NCBI GenBank assembly: GCA_963797095.1
Contig: CAWCNY010000002.1
Span: 160,001 to 224,000, forward strand
Source: an uncultured Chloroflexia bacterium
GTDB lineage: Bacteria > Chloroflexota > Chloroflexia > QHBQ01 > JADMIH01
Length of the DNA stretch: 64,000 nt
Direction: 5' to 3'
This document shows, piece by piece, positions 4,787 to 11,410 of the stretch (the first letter of the stretch is position 1; every line of letters begins with the position of its first letter). The notes beneath the pieces were generated by a model. The model had not been told where the DNA came from and did not search any database. It was given only the letters and a program-made list of their open reading frames with translations. The translations under genes and the position numbers were made by a program.

Positions 4787-4865
4787 GAAGTTCCTGGTTT
4801 CTGGTTCCAAGTTCCTGGTTGGATAGCTAATAACTAGGAACCAGGAACTAGCAACTTGGAACTTC
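4787..4865. repeat. Palindromic period-7 repeat (GTTCCTG/CAGGAAC family)
   Basis: GTTCCTG-GTTTCTG-GTTCCAA-GTTCCTG arm and complementary GAACCAG arm. Confidence 0.75.
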
Positions 4866-4870
4866 CGTGC

Positions 4871-5512
4871 CTAGGTCCTTGCTTCGAGCACTACCACCTG
4901 CATAGGGCCTTCATCATCGGAGCCTTTGACCGTGAGCTTCTCCTGAGGGGTCCACTCTTTTATGCCTATCTCCTTCATAAACCTGTCCAGCGCATCCAGT
5001 TCGACCAATTCTTTGCCTGTTGAATAGTGCATGGGTATAACGATGTGCGGTTCGATCTGGCTTATGACTTCGCTGGCCTTGTTCGCGCTGAGTGCGTTGT
5101 GGCCGCCTACCGGTACCATCAGCACATCGACATCGCCCAGGGCCTCGAGCTGGTGCGAGTTGAGTGTGTGGCCCAGCGCGCCAAGATGGCACACTACCGC
5201 GTCGTCCAGGTGAAAGATGAAGATATTGTTTCTACCTAGCTCCTTACCCTCTTTGCTGTCTGCGAAGGACCAGACGCCTGTAACAAATACACCCCGGACT
5301 TCGTATTCGCCGGGGCCTCTTACCACGAAGGGTTCGCCCTTCACGCCTGGTGTCGCGCTGTGGTGTGGGTGTTCGTGAGAAATGGTGACGATTTCGGCCT
5401 TCTGGTTTAGCGTGCCCAGACCGAGGCTTTTATCGTAGGGGTCGGTGATAACGGTGGCGTCGCGGCTCTTGATGCGGAAGCAGGCGTGTCCCAGCCATGT
5501 GATTTCTGCCAA
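4871..5512 (-). CDS. MBL-fold metallo-hydrolase (Lactamase_B_3-like)
   Basis: ITWLGHACF, ITDPY, SHEHPHH, GPGEYE, IPMHY. Confidence 0.9.
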   Translation of the reverse strand: MAEITWLGHACFRIKSRDATVITDPYDKSLGLGTLNQKAEIVTISHEHPHHSATPGVKGEPFVVRGPGEYEVRGVFVTGVWSFADSKEGKELGRNNIFIFHLDDAVVCHLGALGHTLNSHQLEALGDVDVLMVPVGGHNALSANKASEVISQIEPHIVIPMHYSTGKELVELDALDRFMKEIGIKEWTPQEKLTVKGSDDEGPMQVVVLEART

Positions 5513-6019
5513 TAGATTTACCTTCTTTCATAGGCAGAAGGCCGGCCATTTCGGCTTCGGCCTTCCGCAAAAATACCATGTAATTGTACCAAAATGACCG
5601 TTTTGCACGCAAATGTGGAAAAGTGCAAAAATGGAAGGCCTCTTGGCAATAACCTCCTATTATACGAATCAGGTTCAATTCACCTGACACAGAAGACTAT
5701 GCTACAAACCTGCAAGTCTGTTTCATGCCTTTGATAGTCCAGAAGGTACAGGGCATTGTCAGGATGGTAACTGGGCGGGTAGTAATTTCGTGACGAATTT
5801 GCCGCGTCCAGTTCGAGGTTTGGTGAAAAATGGAGGTTGTTCATTTTCGACCTCGGAATATAGAATTATTACAGATGCGCCCAGTAGTCTACAGTCTTAC
5901 TCACCACAGTACTTCGGTTATCACGCTTGGACGCCCACAGAGACCTCCCATCCACAAGGAGAGATCAATGTCGACCTCTATCAACTCAATCCAAGTGATG
6001 ACCCTGTAACCGGTACGAG

Positions 6020-6737
6020 GGATAGCGGTTGAGGCCGATAAGCGCCAGGTAAGGTCCGAACGCGTGCCAGTTGAGCATGGTGGCGAGGGTGAACTCGCCG
6101 ATCACGATGGCGAACGTCAGGAACGCTCCGCTGAGGAGTGCTACTCGCAAGTTGGGGAAGGTCACCCGAAATAGTATAGTGACCCAGTTTGCCCCCAGGC
6201 TCTGGGCGCCTCGGTGAGCGCCCGCACGTCCATTGCCCGCAATCCTGTATCGACCGCGCGATACATATAAGGGAGGGCGAGCACCACGTAGCCCGCTACG
6301 AGGAGCGCCGGGCTGGAGACAAGAGGGAGCGGGCCTCCGCTATAATTCCGGATCAGCCCGAACACCGGCACGATGGCGGGCACCACGAAAGGCAACAGCG
6401 TGATGAACTCGATCAGCGGGCGCAGTCGCGGCAGCTTGAGATGCACCCAGTAGGCCGTCGGCACGATCAGCACCAGGCTTACCACTATTGTGGATACGGC
6501 CATCAACGTCGAAAAGAGGAAGGTGTCGCGGAACTGCGTGTCGGCGAGCACGTTGGCATAGGCGTCAAAGCCGTACTTATCGCGTCCAGCCGCCCGCAGC
6601 GAGAACTCGAACGTGCCGTACAGAGGCACCAGAAAATAGAGCGCGCCCACAATGATAATGCGCCACGACCAGAAGGGCACCCAGAACTTGCCGCTCAGCT
6701 TCCCCGCAGCCACCTCGCGCTCCAGCGCTGAAGCCAC
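6020..6737 (-). pseudogene. ABC importer permease (PotC/FbpB-like), frameshifted near 6205 and 3'-truncated
   Basis: ITLLPFVVPAIV, LPYMYRAVD; EAA loop broken by a 1-nt loss; continuation LGANWVTILFRV..PNLRVALLSGAFLTFAIVIGEF in the next frame. Confidence 0.8.
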
Positions 6738-7604
6738 GAGTATGCGCCTATGGAGATCGCCATGATCACCACCATACCGAGGGCGAGCGCGTAGCCCAGG
6801 TTAGGGTTATGCAGCACATCGCCGCGAATTTGTGCCCCGATCTGGATGGTTATGAGGTTGAGCGAGCCGCCCGTGAGGGCGAAGGCGGTGGCATACGCCC
6901 CGAATGCGTTCCCAAAGAGGAGGATCATCGTGCCGAGCAGCGAAGGCATGAGGATGGGGAGGGCAATGTGTCGCCAGTACTGCGAGGGAGTGGCCCTCAG
7001 GTTCTCCGATGCCTCGCGCCACTCCCTTTTGAGGCCGTCGAGCGCGGGGGCGATGATCAGCACCATATGGGGAACTGGAAATAGAGGTAGGTGAGGCTCA
7101 GGCCCCAGAACGTATAGAGGCTGAACCCGCCGTTGTAGACGTCCAGGCCGATGTTCTTCAACAGTACAGTGAGGAACCCTGTACGCTCCAGGGTGGCTAT
7201 GAAGGCGAAGGCGAGGGGCACGCCCGCGAAGTTGGAGGCCACCCCGAAAAGGTCATCAGCGCCGAGCGCACCCATTGCGGTAGTCCACCTATCACCACGG
7301 CATACGCCAGCAGGAAGCCGAATATGCCGCCGCCAAGAGCGGTAACGGCGCTAACTTCGACGCTCAGAATATACGAATTGAGGATAAACGGCTGGAACAG
7401 ATCGCCTATGTTGGCGAGGGTGACGTTGCCCGCATCGTCCTGAAAGCTGCCGATCAAGAGGTAGGCGCTGGGCAAGATGAGAAAGAGGAAGGCAAACGCT
7501 ATGAAAGGCATGACACCCAGCCATGCCCATGTGCCTGTGCGCACCAGCCTGCGGGCCTGTGGCGCTTCGGCGGTCGCGATAGGTCTATCTAAAGCCTGTG
7601 CCAA
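6695..7604 (-). pseudogene. ABC importer permease (PotB-like), two frameshifts (about 7243 and 7068)
   Basis: Three consecutive ORF pieces join into one permease (SNFAGVPLAFAF; WREASENLRA EAA motif). Confidence 0.85.
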
Positions 7605-7695
7605 ATGCTAAATCTCCCGCCCCTGCGCCGGCCCTCCCCTCGCGGGGAAGACCGGCGACAATAAGGATTGGAGGAAAGGAACCGAGATGTATGCT

Positions 7696-8945
7696 TTACT
7701 CTACGTCAGCACCGACCAAGCTGTCCCAGTTCTTGGTGATCGTTTCGTTGGCCTTGCTGAGTTGGCCGAGGGTGGGGAACTGGGCCTTGGCATATACATC
7801 GGCGGGAGGGAGCTTGGCTGCCAGGTCTGCGGGGATCGCGTTCCTGCTCGCCAGGTCGTTATAGTGGATCGGGTGGCAGTAGCCGTTCAGCCATGCTAGC
7901 TGGCCTTCGTCCGAGTAGAGGTACTCCATCCAGAGCTGAGCGGCGTTGGGTGAGGCGCATAGGCGCCGATCGCCTGCACGTACACTCCCGCCGGCACGCC
8001 ATTGGACGGCACGATCACATCAACCTTGGGATTGTCCTTGAGGGCATCCTTGTCGGCCAGCGCGTTGTAGTCCCAGCGCAGCACGATGAGGGTCTCGCCC
8101 TTGGCGACCGTTCCTTGCTTGGCGATCACGGGCACGAAGATGCCGCCCTTGTTCAGGGTAGCGAAGAAGTTGAGGCCCGGCTGCACGTTGTCGAGTGAGC
8201 CACCGGTGCCGAGGGCAACAGCGGTCACGCCGTTGATCGCGTGGCTGGATGTACGAGGGTCGCCCGCGAGGGCCACCTGGCCCTTGTACTCAGGCTTGTT
8301 CAGGTCGGACCACTCCTGGGGGACGTTCGTCACCACATCGGCGTTCACTTCAAGAGCCATAACACCATAGTAGTCGCCGTACCAGTAGCCGTCGGCGTCT
8401 TTGGCGCTGTCGGGGATGGTGTCCCACGTAGATACCTTGTAAGGCTGGATCAACTGGTCGGTCTTGGCCGAAGGGCCGAACGATAGGCCAACGTCGATCA
8501 CGTCGGGGGCTTGTGGGCCTTTGTTGTCCTTGTTTGCCTTGATTGCCTCGACCTCATCGCCCGATCCGGCGTCGGGGGTTAGCTCATTGACCGAAAGGCC
8601 GTACTTGGCCTTGAGGCCATCGATCACCGCGCCGTAGCCGCACCAATCGTGCGGTAGCGCGATGGTGGTCAGAGTGCCTTCCGCCTTGGCGTCTGATACC
8701 AGCTTATCCATATCGGCTGACATCGAGGAGTCTGTGCCTGATGACGAGCTACTTGCGGTGGTGGCCGTCGGCGCGACCGGCGTGGCGGTGGGCGTATCGC
8801 CGCAGGCCGACAGCAGGGCGCTGCCCCCAAGCAGCAAAGCCATAGCCATTCCCGTTAATTTGCGACTTGTTGTTTTCAATGTAGAAGATCCTCCTCCTGG
8901 TATAAGGTACCAGCAACGGCAGCTCAGTCGTAACGCACCTACCAA
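7696..8945 (-). pseudogene. ABC importer substrate-binding lipoprotein (PotD/iron-thiamine family), frameshift near 7938
   Basis: Lipobox LSAC; APDVIDVG, WYGDYYG; APHP(N)AAQLWMEYLYSDEGQ split across frames; true start probably downstream of 8945. Confidence 0.85.
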
Positions 8946-9020
8946 ATGCCGCTTGACAGACTACTAGCAGCCGGATGTTAGGGGGTTGTTATTTGGCCTT
9001 TAACCAGTGTTAACAACATC

Positions 9021-9091
9021 TTTTCCACAGGTCATGTGGAATAGTGCAAACATGCGCATGTTTCGAACAATAAACATAAGATTGTGGAAAA
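9021..9091. promoter_or_regulatory. Cluster of DnaA-type boxes plus a 16-bp palindrome
   Basis: TTTTCCACA 9021-9029, TGTGGAATA 9035-9043 (1 mismatch), TGTGGAAAA 9083-9091 against TTWTNCACA; AAACATGCGCATGTTT at 9048-9063. Confidence 0.5.
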
Positions 9092-9096
9092 CCCAC

Positions 9097-9126
9097 TTGA
9101 CATATCATCCAGGCTGCGGATATAAG
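9097..9126 (+). promoter_or_regulatory. Sigma70-type promoter of the CHAP-like gene
   Basis: TTGACA-18 bp-TATAAG. Confidence 0.65.
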
Positions 9127-9131
9127 GTAAT

Positions 9132-9145
9132 AGAACATAAGTTCT
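9132..9145. promoter_or_regulatory. LexA (SOS) operator, Gram-positive/Dehalococcoides type
   Basis: AGAAC-ATAA-GTTCT, perfect GAAC-N4-GTTC, lying over the expected transcription start. Confidence 0.75.
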
Positions 9146-9192
9146 GATAGGTAATTGAAGCTGTATTTAGAGAAGTTTCAGGAGTTAGAGAG

Positions 9193-10140
9193 ATGTTCAA
9201 GAGCATAGTAGCGAGGAAGTTGGCACTGGCGACAATAAGCATTACATTCATCGCGCTGGGAGTTGGCTCGGCGCATGCAGAGAGCACCACACCCGGCGGG
9301 CACACCAACCCTTATCCCTATGGTACAGAGCAATACTGGGCGTGGCAGAACAGACCGGATCTTCCGGGCAACCTGGGTGAGCCTTACACCTGGGACGACA
9401 ACGCGGGCAGGCTTGGCTGGCCCGTGAGCGAGTACCCGCGCAGGGGCGACGTGGCGGTGTTCGAGCCGGGGGTGCTTGGTGTCGATGTAACACGGGGGCA
9501 GGTGGCTTTCGTGGAGCAGGTGCTGGCCGATGGCAAGTTCACGGTCAGTTTGATGGACGACACAGAGTGCAGCGCGTGCGGGCGCATTGACCGGAGAGAT
9601 TACGAGCTTGCCCCGGGCACCAGCTTTATCCACTACCAGAAGGACACGCGCACAACCTGGGGATTCCAGAGCGGGCAGTCTGGTTGGACGGCGAGCGACG
9701 TCGATGCGGGCAACCTGGGAGGGCCAGGGTGGTATTATCCTCTGGCGGGTGCCGACCCCAATCTGGTTAGCCCCGACCTTGAGATACCGCTCGATTACTA
9801 CAACACTATCGAAGTGGATATCGCCCAGGGCATACCGGTTAGCGATCCTACGATGCAGGTCTATTTCGCGACGGATGCGCAGTCCGAATTCACCGAAGCC
9901 AACTCGGTCACGGTGCGCGGGCTTGCGGATGGCGAGCTACACCGCTACAGCTTCTTCTTCGGCGGCAACCCCAACTGGAAAGGCACTCTCGTCCGGCTCA
10001 GGCTCGACCCGGCGGGCGCGGGCACGAAGGGTGGGGTGCGCATTGACCGCGTGCGCCTGGTCCAATCCGAAGGCCAACCGCCTGTATACACCGCGCTAAA
10101 CGAGACACCGTTGGATACGCACGGCGGGCGGCAGCGATAG
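9193..10140 (+). CDS. Secreted CHAP-like domain protein (catalytic Cys and His replaced) with C-terminal beta-sandwich/CBM-like domain
   Basis: Signal peptide ending AHA; NPYPYGTEQYWA, PRRGDVAVF, GQVAFVEQV; C-terminal WKG..RLRLDP. Confidence 0.8.
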   Translation: MFKSIVARKLALATISITFIALGVGSAHAESTTPGGHTNPYPYGTEQYWAWQNRPDLPGNLGEPYTWDDNAGRLGWPVSEYPRRGDVAVFEPGVLGVDVTRGQVAFVEQVLADGKFTVSLMDDTECSACGRIDRRDYELAPGTSFIHYQKDTRTTWGFQSGQSGWTASDVDAGNLGGPGWYYPLAGADPNLVSPDLEIPLDYYNTIEVDIAQGIPVSDPTMQVYFATDAQSEFTEANSVTVRGLADGELHRYSFFFGGNPNWKGTLVRLRLDPAGAGTKGGVRIDRVRLVQSEGQPPVYTALNETPLDTHGGRQR

Positions 10141-10156
10141 TGGTTCAAAACAAGTC

Positions 10157-11410
10157 TCACTCTTGCCATTCGCGCAGCACCAGCACTCCGTTCTGGCCGC
10201 CGAAGCCGAAGCCGTTTACGAGGGCTGCGCGTATCTTCATGGCGCGGGCTTCGTTCGGCACATAGTCGAGGTCGCATTCGGGGTCGGGGTACTGGTAATT
10301 GATCGTTGGCGGGGCGATCCCCTCTTTGATGGCGAGGGTTGCCGCCACCGCCGAGAACGCCCCTGCTGCGCCCAGCGCGTGCCCTACCATGCTTTTGTTG
10401 GAGGACACAGGCACTTTGTAGGCCAGGTCGCCGAGGGCCTTCTTGATGGCCGCCGTTTCCGCCACATCGTTGAGTGGTGTGGACGTGCCGTGCGCCGCTA
10501 TATAGTCAATATCGTCGGGAGTAAGTCCTGTGTATTTGAGGGCGCGGGTGATCGCCTTGGCTGCGCCTACGCCGCCCGGTGCCGGGGCCGTCACATGGTA
10601 AGCATCGGCCGTCAATGCGCCCCCAAGCACTTCGGCGTAGATCTTCGCGCCGCGTGCGATGGCGCTCTCGGCGCTTTCTAGGATGGCGCAGGCTGCCCCT
10701 TCGCTGTAGACAAAGCCGTCGCGCTTCAAGTCGAACGGGCGGCTTACCTGTTCGGGTGGTAATTCACTGTTCTTCGATAGAGCCTGCATGTTGGCTAGAG
10801 AGGCTATCGCCAGGTCGGTGATGAACAACTCGGTGCCGCCGGTGATAGCCATCTCGGCCTCGCCTCGCATGATGAAATGGTAGGCATCCACGAAGGAGAA
10901 GATGCCGCTGGCACAGGCTGCCACGCTGGTGGTGGCGGGGCCATGTGTGCCCAATTGCAGCGACACCTGGCACGAGGCCATGTTGGAGATCATTGCAGGC
11001 AGCACCATCGGCGTGACCGAGCGCATCCCCTTGTCGCGCACGATCAGGCTTGCCTCTTGCATCACGTCGAGGCCGCCCCCGCCCGTCGCCATCACCACCG
11101 CCACATCGTCAGAGTTCTCCTCGGTTATCACATAGCCCGAGTCGTCAAGTGCCTGCTTTGCCACGGCCACAGCGTAATGCGCGAAGCGAGCCATCCGGCG
11201 CGCGGCCTTCGGCTCGATGTATTCGTCGGCGTTGAAGCCCTTCACCTCGCCTGCGATCTTTACAGGCGAGTTGGTGATATCGAATCGCGTGATATACGAA
11301 ATACCCGATTTCCCAGCTATCAGGTTGCGCCAGAACTCCTCTGTCGTGTTGCCAATAGGCGTCACGGCGCCAAGCCCGGTGATCACCACTCTTCTATTGC
11401 TATAAGCCAA
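10157..11410 (-). CDS. fabF: Beta-ketoacyl-ACP synthase II (copy 2)
   Basis: RRVVITGLG, AACASG, AHGTST, GHALGA, NGFGFGG; Cys-His-His intact. Confidence 0.93.
   Translation of the reverse strand: MAYSNRRVVITGLGAVTPIGNTTEEFWRNLIAGKSGISYITRFDITNSPVKIAGEVKGFNADEYIEPKAARRMARFAHYAVAVAKQALDDSGYVITEENSDDVAVVMATGGGGLDVMQEASLIVRDKGMRSVTPMVLPAMISNMASCQVSLQLGTHGPATTSVAACASGIFSFVDAYHFIMRGEAEMAITGGTELFITDLAIASLANMQALSKNSELPPEQVSRPFDLKRDGFVYSEGAACAILESAESAIARGAKIYAEVLGGALTADAYHVTAPAPGGVGAAKAITRALKYTGLTPDDIDYIAAHGTSTPLNDVAETAAIKKALGDLAYKVPVSSNKSMVGHALGAAGAFSAVAATLAIKEGIAPPTINYQYPDPECDLDYVPNEARAMKIRAALVNGFGFGGQNGVLVLREWQE

Follow-up and report, generated by a model that had tools for sequence, protein, structure and literature searches.

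What might a protein with the fold of a cell wall hydrolase be doing behind a promoter that combines a perfect LexA box with boxes of the DnaA type? The question is raised by a CHAP-like gene of an uncultured Chloroflexia bacterium, located in the 64,000 nucleotides analyzed here (G000:C2:160001-224000, hereafter the window, whose own numbering is used unless a contig or locus is named) from an assembly of 6.02 Mb with 8 contigs and 58% G+C. The gene stands alone, with both neighboring genes on the minus strand. The original prediction was that of a catalytically dead CHAP protein under LexA and DnaA control, which would act as a damage or replication checkpoint factor in analogy to the division inhibitors YneA and ChiZ. 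Our analysis supported the putative dual-box regulation and the dead CHAP domain, while several features speak against the YneA/ChiZ analogy. Overall, the best explanation appears to be a damage-induced, LexA/DnaA-controlled, non-catalytic binder of wall or glycan, to which we assign a probability of about 0.45. That a pseudo-enzyme is under putative dual control by LexA and DnaA is in itself well supported by sequence, and we infer a possible role of the protein at a division checkpoint. Four of the genomes used for comparison (G016, G021, G022, and G032) are unpublished; they are counted in the promoter sets and also provide one protein fragment, and the conclusions are independent of them.

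The LexA operator of this host was read from its own lexA promoter, where GAAC-N4-GTTC (GAACCTATGTTC) lies between the -35 and the -10. The same arrangement, TTGACA-N-GAAC-N4-GTTC-TATG, was found in 18/18 same-genus lexA promoters (16/16 without the unpublished G016 and G021). The box reported for the CHAP-like gene, a perfect AGAAC-N4-GTTCT over the predicted start site, is indeed present just 3' of the -10. When it was scored genome-wide with a weight matrix derived from lexA operators in 21 relatives, the own genome being excluded, the site at position 9133 ranked 6th; with the same matrix the own lexA operator ranked 2nd, and 67 positions scored >10. Orthologues of the protein with 50-81% identity were detected in 23/24 same-genus genomes, while the sister genus contains only matches of 36-39%, to the CHAP part. 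The LexA box is perfect in 22/23 orthologue promoters, whose proteins are down to 51% identical, the exception having one mismatch, and in every one of these promoters it begins 35-37 nt downstream of the first position of the -35. Intergenic DNA outside the promoter boxes is not conserved among the orthologues. Leaving out the unpublished G021 and G022, the LexA box is perfect in 20/21 promoters and the DnaA-type box next to the -35 is strict in 20/21. The equivalent of a second LexA-like site, GAA[AC]-N4-GTTC, which is degenerate in this genome, occurs in 9/23 orthologue promoters. Genome-wide, 55 perfect GAAC-N4-GTTC boxes were counted, many of them in coding DNA, whereas those in AT-rich intergenic DNA lie within or right after recognizable -35/-10 pairs. 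The latter precede dinB, a PolX-like gene, a PIN-type cassette upstream of uvrA, genes for a glyoxalase, an alpha/beta hydrolase, and sigma and LuxR-type regulators, as well as the CHAP-like gene. It is thus the match to the lexA operator, the genome-wide rank and the conservation among orthologues that carry the case beyond chance.

As regards DnaA, the two consensus boxes and the one near-consensus box previously described upstream of the promoter are all in place. The strict form TTWTNCACA occurs 193 times in the 6.02 Mb, and places with at least two strict boxes within 100 bp number 7, against about 0.6 expected by a Poisson estimate. They lie upstream of dnaA, dnaN (in a box-rich, origin-like region), nrdR, mraZ, a yegS-like lipid kinase gene, one locus without a recognizable gene, and the CHAP-like gene, the last being the sole cluster of three TNTTCCACA boxes in the genome with gaps of at most 100 bp. 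The proximal box is exactly 5 bp from the -35, and this spacing appears to be fixed: all 23 orthologue promoters contain [G/T]GTG[G/C]AWAA-N5-TTGAC, with a strict box in 22 of them. Across the genome only 5/94 occurrences of TGTGGAWAA have TTGAC 3-7 nt downstream, namely those at the CHAP-like gene, at nrdR, at one further promoter and at two promoters whose LexA box is likewise perfect (C2:410101 and C6:684619, both on the minus strand). The layout at nrdR, TGTGGAAAA-N5-TTGAC, is that of the CHAP-like gene. The corresponding module (TGTG-N-A-W-AA, 4-6 nt, TTGAC) was found upstream of nrdR in 21/22 same-genus genomes (18/19 without the unpublished G016, G021, and G022) and in 2 sister-genus genomes. 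Its box takes the forms TGTGGAAAA, TGTGCAAAA, TGTGTAAAA, TGTGTATAA, TGTGCATAA, and TGTGGATAA across the genus, and because this variation is confined to the two degenerate positions (N and W) of the DnaA consensus, there is good evidence that the factor recognizing the box would be DnaA.

The promoter to which these boxes belong, TTGACA-18-TATAAG, is located where it had been placed. The -10 hexamers of the orthologues are TATTAT/TATAAT-like and occupy the same place, and a ribosome-binding site precedes the ATG at 9193. The CHAP-like gene is therefore predicted to have its own sigma-70-type promoter.

Regarding the protein, the CHAP family of Pfam (PF05257) is its sole Pfam match, scoring 30.9 bits (cut-off 26) over amino acids 40-119, while the NCBIfam matches, to staphylococcal amidase and PcsB-type models, were all weak and partial. 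A structural comparison was provided by the Staphylococcus aureus CHAP domain in PDB entry 5t1q, both by sequence (E 1.3e-9) and by Foldseek (probability 1.00, E 4.5e-8, 31% identity, root mean square deviation 2.3 over 114 columns). In this alignment GQCTWY corresponds to GTEQYW (G44-T45-E46-Q47-Y48) and GHVAFVE to GQVAFVE (G102-Q103-V104), which bears out the replacements originally proposed, and L120 occupies the third polar catalytic position. A total of 90 homologues were collected, all from metagenomes or metagenome-assembled genomes (MAGs), of which 85-87 could be scored per catalytic column. The loss of the catalytic Cys extends to the whole family, since Cys was found in 0/85 sequences, its position being taken by S (57), A (10), P (9), Q (8), or E (1). 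The His position (n = 87) reads H in 48, Q in 16, R in 15, G in 3, E in 2, and N, D, or S in 1 each, and the third position (n = 87) reads Q in 56, E in 10, L in 8, A in 7, V in 4, and I or T in 1 each. Nevertheless, conservation among the homologues reaches at least 90% around the former active site, at N39-P42, W49-R54, G102, V104-A105, and V107. An alternative nucleophile from the ECSAC loop, which had been named as a possible refutation, was rejected; C126 and C129 are both present in 75/85 CHAP domains and both absent from 10/85, and as they co-vary and can be deleted they are a loop pair rather than a conserved nucleophile. The protein thus belongs to the CHAP family by fold and homology and lacks the catalytic Cys, the His and the third polar residue. 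With E/Q/L at these positions no catalytic triad is left, and the predicted product is a CHAP-fold domain without one.

The N-terminus looks like a cleavable signal peptide of the Sec type, and the product is accordingly predicted to be exported. The N-termini of the orthologues are hydrophobic without being conserved in sequence, and no conserved transmembrane (TM) anchor was found among them. An AlphaFold2 (AF2) model of the protein reached a pLDDT (per-residue confidence) of 87.4 and a pTM (predicted template modelling score) of 0.78. It supports the presence of a domain like a carbohydrate-binding module (CBM) after the CHAP domain, as stated in the original prediction: the C-terminal beta-sandwich matches CBM6, CBM86, and CBM4 structures in Foldseek (1gmm, 6sgf, 1uy1, and 1gui; E 1e-6 to 3e-5; TM-score on target 0.5-0.65), and its Atlas features correspond to galactose-binding-like and CBM clusters. 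Amino acids 150-292 have no Pfam or NCBIfam match, which places the domain outside the curated CBM families by sequence. The tail that follows ends in a conserved basic motif, GGR(R/Q/S)R, recurrent in the orthologues.

Concerning the origin of this architecture, a profile search against 1.84 billion representatives revealed that many very large proteins contain the C-terminal domain in several copies, with as many as 8 in proteins of 800-3800 amino acids from the global library, and that some proteins match both the CHAP and the sandwich domain. Six proteins were fetched; five are two-domain relatives, all of them with GNC(T/V)WW and the His, and the sixth (P0089) is a member of the dead family. 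Named homologues of the CHAP-like protein come from Chloroflexia or Chloroflexota MAGs. A search of sequencing runs for this organism returned four DNA runs from soil, all of one study and each with a small word share, and no RNA run. In the sister genus, GQCTY and GHV are intact in 6/6 CHAP proteins (L066-L071), and GAAC-N4-GTTC was not found within 200 nt upstream of any of them (0/6). Since both the two-domain relatives and the sister-genus CHAPs keep the catalytic residues, the genus is predicted to hold a degenerate derivative of an active CHAP plus sandwich architecture. Within the own genome no second CHAP was detected above the Pfam cut-off, and one SH3-NlpC/P60 hydrolase is present. 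The gene for a solute-binding protein upstream is found at 0/21 orthologous loci, while fabF lies downstream at 17/21. An origin from a prophage lysin was also considered and dropped, because PHROGs holds no phage family for the protein and the position beside fabF is conserved. Some features of the relatives may be added for completeness. The sister-genus CHAPs have long low-complexity tails rich in Ala, Lys, and Thr, two of them with an in-frame TAG in the matched frame, and a TGTGGATAA box occurs upstream of two of their genes. The CBM-like domain also ends a polytopic membrane protein of 686 amino acids with a weak TMEM260/PMT-like match (L108:1034-3091 in G003).

Taken together, LexA very probably represses the CHAP-like gene and DNA damage would de-repress it. 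A LexA dimer bound at 9132-9145, directly 3' of the -10, would keep the open complex from forming or the polymerase from escaping the promoter; an operator directly after the -10 that blocks RNA polymerase is the usual mode of Gram-positive-type LexA operators. DnaA probably acts here as well, and from its position beside the -35 it would tune promoter strength to the replication state. It would most likely do so as a co-activator, as at nrd-type promoters, because a fixed 5-bp box outside the core promoter fits a factor touching RNA polymerase, although the sign of the effect may go either way. Once exported, the protein is expected, on somewhat better than even odds, to bind the envelope without cutting it, with stem peptides held in the groove of the dead CHAP domain and glycan by the sandwich. 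It is more doubtful that, by masking the substrate or titrating a hydrolase, it would slow septum splitting or wall turnover during DNA repair. The most far-reaching version of this proposal, which we regard as improbable, is that a soluble, anchor-less, exported pseudo-hydrolase serves as a damage/replication checkpoint effector of this Chloroflexia lineage, with a promoter that works as an AND gate (LexA off, DnaA on). The protein would then coat septal peptidoglycan and keep hydrolases from splitting the septum, acting outside the membrane. SOS promoters with a DnaA box at about -45 would be a lineage-wide design, an idea based on the CHAP-like gene, the two other LexA-box promoters and the near-match at lexA.

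A number of observations weigh against the proposal of a LexA/DnaA-controlled, non-catalytic binder or against parts of it. In the window the motif counts are at chance level: GAAC-N4-GTTC occurs once (at least once in 53/100 shuffles) and TTWTNCACA four times (at least four in 18/100 shuffles), and the 55 genome-wide copies of GAAC-N4-GTTC are not above a simple composition estimate. These counts would be in line with boxes that are mere chance matches in AT-rich intergenic DNA, with neither LexA nor DnaA in control. The window-level counts being unremarkable, the case rests on the genome and the relatives, and there the position-fixed conservation in 22/23 promoters, while flanking DNA and the upstream gene differ, and the 6th rank in the genome with an independent matrix make a chance origin scarcely credible. 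In addition, a generic sigma-70 scanner did not call the promoter, owing to the imperfect -10 TATAAG, which has no final T. Upstream of the proximal box, the orthologue promoters retain the arrangement in part, with another TGTGGAA/TTCCACA core in 15/23 and another strict DnaA box in 9/23. As for recA, it is split over two frames by a one-base frame shift inside the gene, and either the assembly is wrong there or the gene is a true pseudogene; a genuine split would leave this strain incapable of SOS induction. Furthermore, three other LexA-box units, an open reading frame of 74 amino acids, one of 91 amino acids and a TM/FG-GAP protein of 274 amino acids, could be equally plausible checkpoint effectors. 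There is also the possibility, which we regard as unlikely, that LexA alone regulates the gene and that TGTGGAAAA by the -35 serves a different transcription factor or works like an UP element. Where a proximal UP subsite would lie, the 9-mer is rich in A, and in six other promoters it is one half of a different palindrome, CCTTCCA-N15-TGGAAAAC. It also occurs near MraZ-type repeats, so that its copies among the repeats upstream of mraZ could perhaps be MraZ sites and not all of them DnaA sites. Moreover, the genus lexA promoters mostly carry a near-match only at the same place (strict in 4/18, the others with 1-2 mismatches as judged by eye). However, the same genome has paired strict boxes upstream of dnaA and dnaN, the nrdR box varies as the DnaA consensus would allow, and in 22/23 orthologue promoters it is the TGTGG part, and not merely the A-run, that is invariant.

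With respect to the protein, a Ser at the Cys position in 57/85 homologues, the His kept in 48/87 and the highly conserved surroundings could be taken to mean that it is still an enzyme working through other residues, i.e., Ser in the orthologues and Glu46 as a general acid/base here. The S/H/Q combination is indeed present in 23/85 homologues, and that part of the family might have serine-type activity, never this protein. An enzymatic role of the CHAP-like protein is very improbable, given that the nucleophile position reads A, P, Q, or E in 28/85 homologues, the His position Q, R, G, E, N, D, or S in 39/87, and the third position L, A, V, I, or T in 21/87, with E/Q/L in this protein, whose sole cysteines are the loop pair. 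A stronger competitor, though still on the unlikely side, accepts the same regulation and differs in the role, which would be opposite or unrelated: the dead CHAP could serve a true hydrolase as adaptor or activator, or could bind envelope or sheath, and SOS induction would then promote autolysis, filament breakage, DNA release, or envelope repair instead of a block to division. The presence of sandwich relatives on a PMT/TMEM260-like membrane protein and on giant surface proteins points to glycan or surface and not to the divisome, the protein is without a TM anchor, and the genome keeps the SH3-NlpC/P60 hydrolase with no other CHAP above the cut-off. On the other hand, no hydrolase gene lies next to the CHAP-like gene, and activation and masking are indistinguishable here. 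An activator role resembling that of EnvC may accordingly be nearly as likely as that of a masking or titrating binder.

The comparison with known systems gives a mixed picture. ChiZ of mycobacteria is a LexA-controlled division inhibitor with an extracytoplasmic LysM domain. The CHAP-like gene shares with yneA and chiZ a LexA-type operator and a product outside the cytoplasm that has a wall-related domain but no obvious enzymatic role. It differs in that the product is non-homologous, about three times larger, and has a signal peptide and a dead CHAP plus CBM-like sandwich instead of LysM. The analogy drawn in the prediction is further contradicted by the absence of a TM anchor (the signal peptide is not conserved) and by the relatives of the C-terminal domain, which sit on glycan-related and giant surface proteins. 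The TM helix of YneA in Bacillus subtilis is reported to contact TM7 of FtsW and to be needed for targeting, and peptidoglycan binding by LysM is also required (PMC13396833). Judged by that account, the CHAP-like protein, which has no conserved TM segment, cannot act as YneA does. A search of the genome revealed no match to the SulA family and five loci for LysM proteins, none of them near a perfect GAAC-N4-GTTC, and thus no YneA/ChiZ-like gene was found with SulA and LysM queries. To our knowledge, the SOS division inhibitors of different phyla are not homologous to each other, and no such inhibitor has been described in Chloroflexota. Searches of the literature on Chloroflexi LexA regulons and on SOS division inhibitors, judged by title and abstract, returned no protein like the one studied here.

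On the regulatory side, nrdAB of Escherichia coli is under DnaA control, and the nrd module resembles the present one in having the DnaA box immediately upstream of the -35, although nrdR here has no LexA box. The E. coli genes uvrB, recN, and dinJ are under dual control by DnaA and LexA, both of which repress (PMC6015884; also reviewed in PMC8203912). They share with the CHAP-like gene LexA and DnaA boxes in one promoter, with an initiator input on top of the SOS response, but their boxes overlap or compete, while here the DnaA box is outside the core promoter, 5 bp from the -35, and they are repair-type targets rather than an exported pseudo-enzyme. In the same review, DnaA is described to bind at ftsL and sda of B. 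subtilis (PMC8203912). The LexA input at sda that had been cited as a precedent was not confirmed, the passages on sda naming only DnaA. With the CHAP peptidoglycan hydrolases (5t1q, i.e., SAOUHSC_02979, and PcsB) the protein shares sequence and fold, whereas the catalytic residues are replaced. A full-text literature search, judged by title and abstract, returned no naturally inactive CHAP domain. Dead hydrolase domains do serve as binders or regulators in the degenerate LytM factors EnvC and NlpD, which activate amidases, and in the mycobacterial NlpC/P60 protein RipD. As in those proteins, the hydrolase fold is kept, catalysis is lost and the surroundings of the old active site are strongly conserved, although they belong to other families or sub-families, and we know of none that is SOS- or DnaA-controlled.

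The CHAP-like gene would thus be a concrete, conserved, and cloneable candidate for a link between DNA damage and the cell wall, and two inputs may be read from its promoter, DNA damage via LexA and replication state via DnaA. It also offers a clean example from nature of catalysis lost in a CHAP domain whose active-site surroundings are kept, and active relatives are at hand to compare it with. Should the protein indeed act from outside on the wall and without an anchor, it would widen the known ways of coupling chromosome status to the envelope, and as a checkpoint effector it would represent a new mechanism of SOS division control. Even if the wall role is false, the locus would still define, for an uncultivated lineage from soil, the LexA operator, part of the SOS regulon, and a promoter module that depends on DnaA.

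Table 1. Features of the CHAP-like locus and of the other loci compared with it. Plain numbers are window positions; aa, amino acids; ORF, open reading frame.
Feature	Position	Strand	Basis or remark
CHAP-like gene, ORF	9193-10140	+	315 aa; read from sequence
Distal DnaA-type box TTTTCCACA (strict TTWTNCACA)	9021-9029	+	read directly
Near-consensus DnaA-type box TGTGGAATA (TATTCCACA on minus, 1 mismatch)	9035-9043	-	
Degenerate second LexA-like element GAAC-AATA-AACA	9065-9076	.	half-site only in this genome
Proximal DnaA-type box, TGTGGAAAA on plus = TTTTCCACA	9083-9091	-	read directly
-35 hexamer TTGACA	9097-9102	+	read directly
-10 hexamer TATAAG, 5/6 consensus, 18-nt spacer	9121-9126	+	read directly
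LexA operator AGAAC-ATAA-GTTCT (AGAACATAAGTTCT) over predicted transcription start	9132-9145	.	read directly
Ribosome-binding site AGGAG, 8 nt before ATG	9180-9184	+	read directly
Predicted signal peptide, aa 1-29 (...GSAHA/EST), Sec type, no lipobox	9193-9279	+	read from sequence
Degenerate CHAP (NlpC/P60-superfamily) domain, aa ~38-146	9304-9630	+	profile, alignment, model
E46 codon in place of Cys	9328-9330	+	alignment to 5t1q
Q103 codon in place of His	9499-9501	+	alignment to 5t1q
CBM-like beta-sandwich (galactose-binding-domain-like), aa ~150-292	9640-10068	+	AF2, Foldseek, Atlas
C-terminal tail and stop codon	10069-10140	+	pLDDT <50
Solute-binding protein gene, upstream neighbor	7896-8945	-	ORF reading
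fabF, downstream neighbor	10157-11410	-	ORF reading
lexA	G000:C2:271047-271745		promoter TTGACA-C-GAACCTATGTTC-TATGAT
dnaA	G000:C2:768124-769842		paired strict DnaA boxes upstream
nrdR promoter, two strict DnaA boxes, proximal one 5 bp from -35	L075:3208-3270 (G000:C6:800208-800270)		
74-aa ORF (MFLGWFDD...), convergent with minC	L017:2300-2627 (G000:C6:684300-684627); ORF itself L017:2300-2524	-	
91-aa ORF and 274-aa single-TM protein	L004:855-2110 (G000:C2:408855-410110); 274-aa protein L004:855-1679	-	weak FG-GAP match
recA, split over two frames	L023:1501-2290 (G000:C6:978919-979708)		Pfam RecA 1-137, then 137-262
SOS-box cassette, 90-aa ORF and PIN-domain gene split in two ORFs	L024:4497-5260 (G000:C6:358572-359335)		
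Upstream of mraZ-rsmH (start of division/cell-wall cluster), three TGTGGAA cores	L074:3613-3710 (G000:C6:689613-689710)		
Twin TTTTCCACA boxes before TTGACA promoter	L073:3481-3540 (G000:C4:132481-132540)		
Six palindrome promoters	G000:C1:109700, C1:213076, C3:1060794, C4:543015, C5:90032, C5:599916		

Several of the other loci with SOS boxes have features of their own. The promoter of the ORF of 74 amino acids reads TGTGGAAAA-N5-TTGACA followed by a LexA box, as at the CHAP-like gene, and this box is perfect in 19/21 same-genus promoters (17/19 without G021 and G022). Homologues of the ORF were found in 36/41 relatives, with no Pfam or PHROG family, and its product is a candidate for a small SOS effector. 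In the unit encoding the products of 91 and 274 amino acids, the promoter consists of TGTGGAAAA-N5-TTGACT with the LexA box between -35 and -10. At recA, TTTTCCACA directly abuts the -35 and only half a LexA site is present. The PIN cassette has a perfect LexA box just after its -10 and uvrA immediately downstream, so it may be an SOS-controlled, toxin-antitoxin-like unit co-transcribed with uvrA.

Other observations concern the boxes themselves. In the six promoters with CCTTCCA-N15-TGGAAAAC, the palindrome is followed by about 20 nt, TTGAC, 17 nt and TATACT, which describes an unrecognized class of palindromic operator. That the proximal box of the CHAP-like gene might be half of such a palindrome was also considered and rejected, the upstream half being absent by eye both here and in the orthologues. 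Upstream of mraZ, the TGTGGAA cores are contained in five GTGGnnAAA repeats with a spacing of about 10 nt, which could serve DnaA, MraZ, or both. The twin boxes at G000:C4:132481 are followed by about 500 bp with no convincing ORF and no Rfam match, and this locus may hold an unannotated RNA or small gene.

Finally, the DNA on the other side of the solute-binding protein gene was inspected. Rfam gave no match in window positions 4800-10300. At 5560-5640, a ATTGTACCA...TGTGGAAAAGTGCAAAAA module precedes the divergent gene of a metallo-beta-lactamase (MBL)-fold hydrolase (4871-5512, minus strand). At many orthologous loci a similar module, ATTGTACCA...TGTGGAA-GTGCA, lies directly upstream of the CHAP promoter, and therefore the ABC-transporter genes of this genome (about 5986-8945, minus strand) may have been inserted between the module and the promoter.

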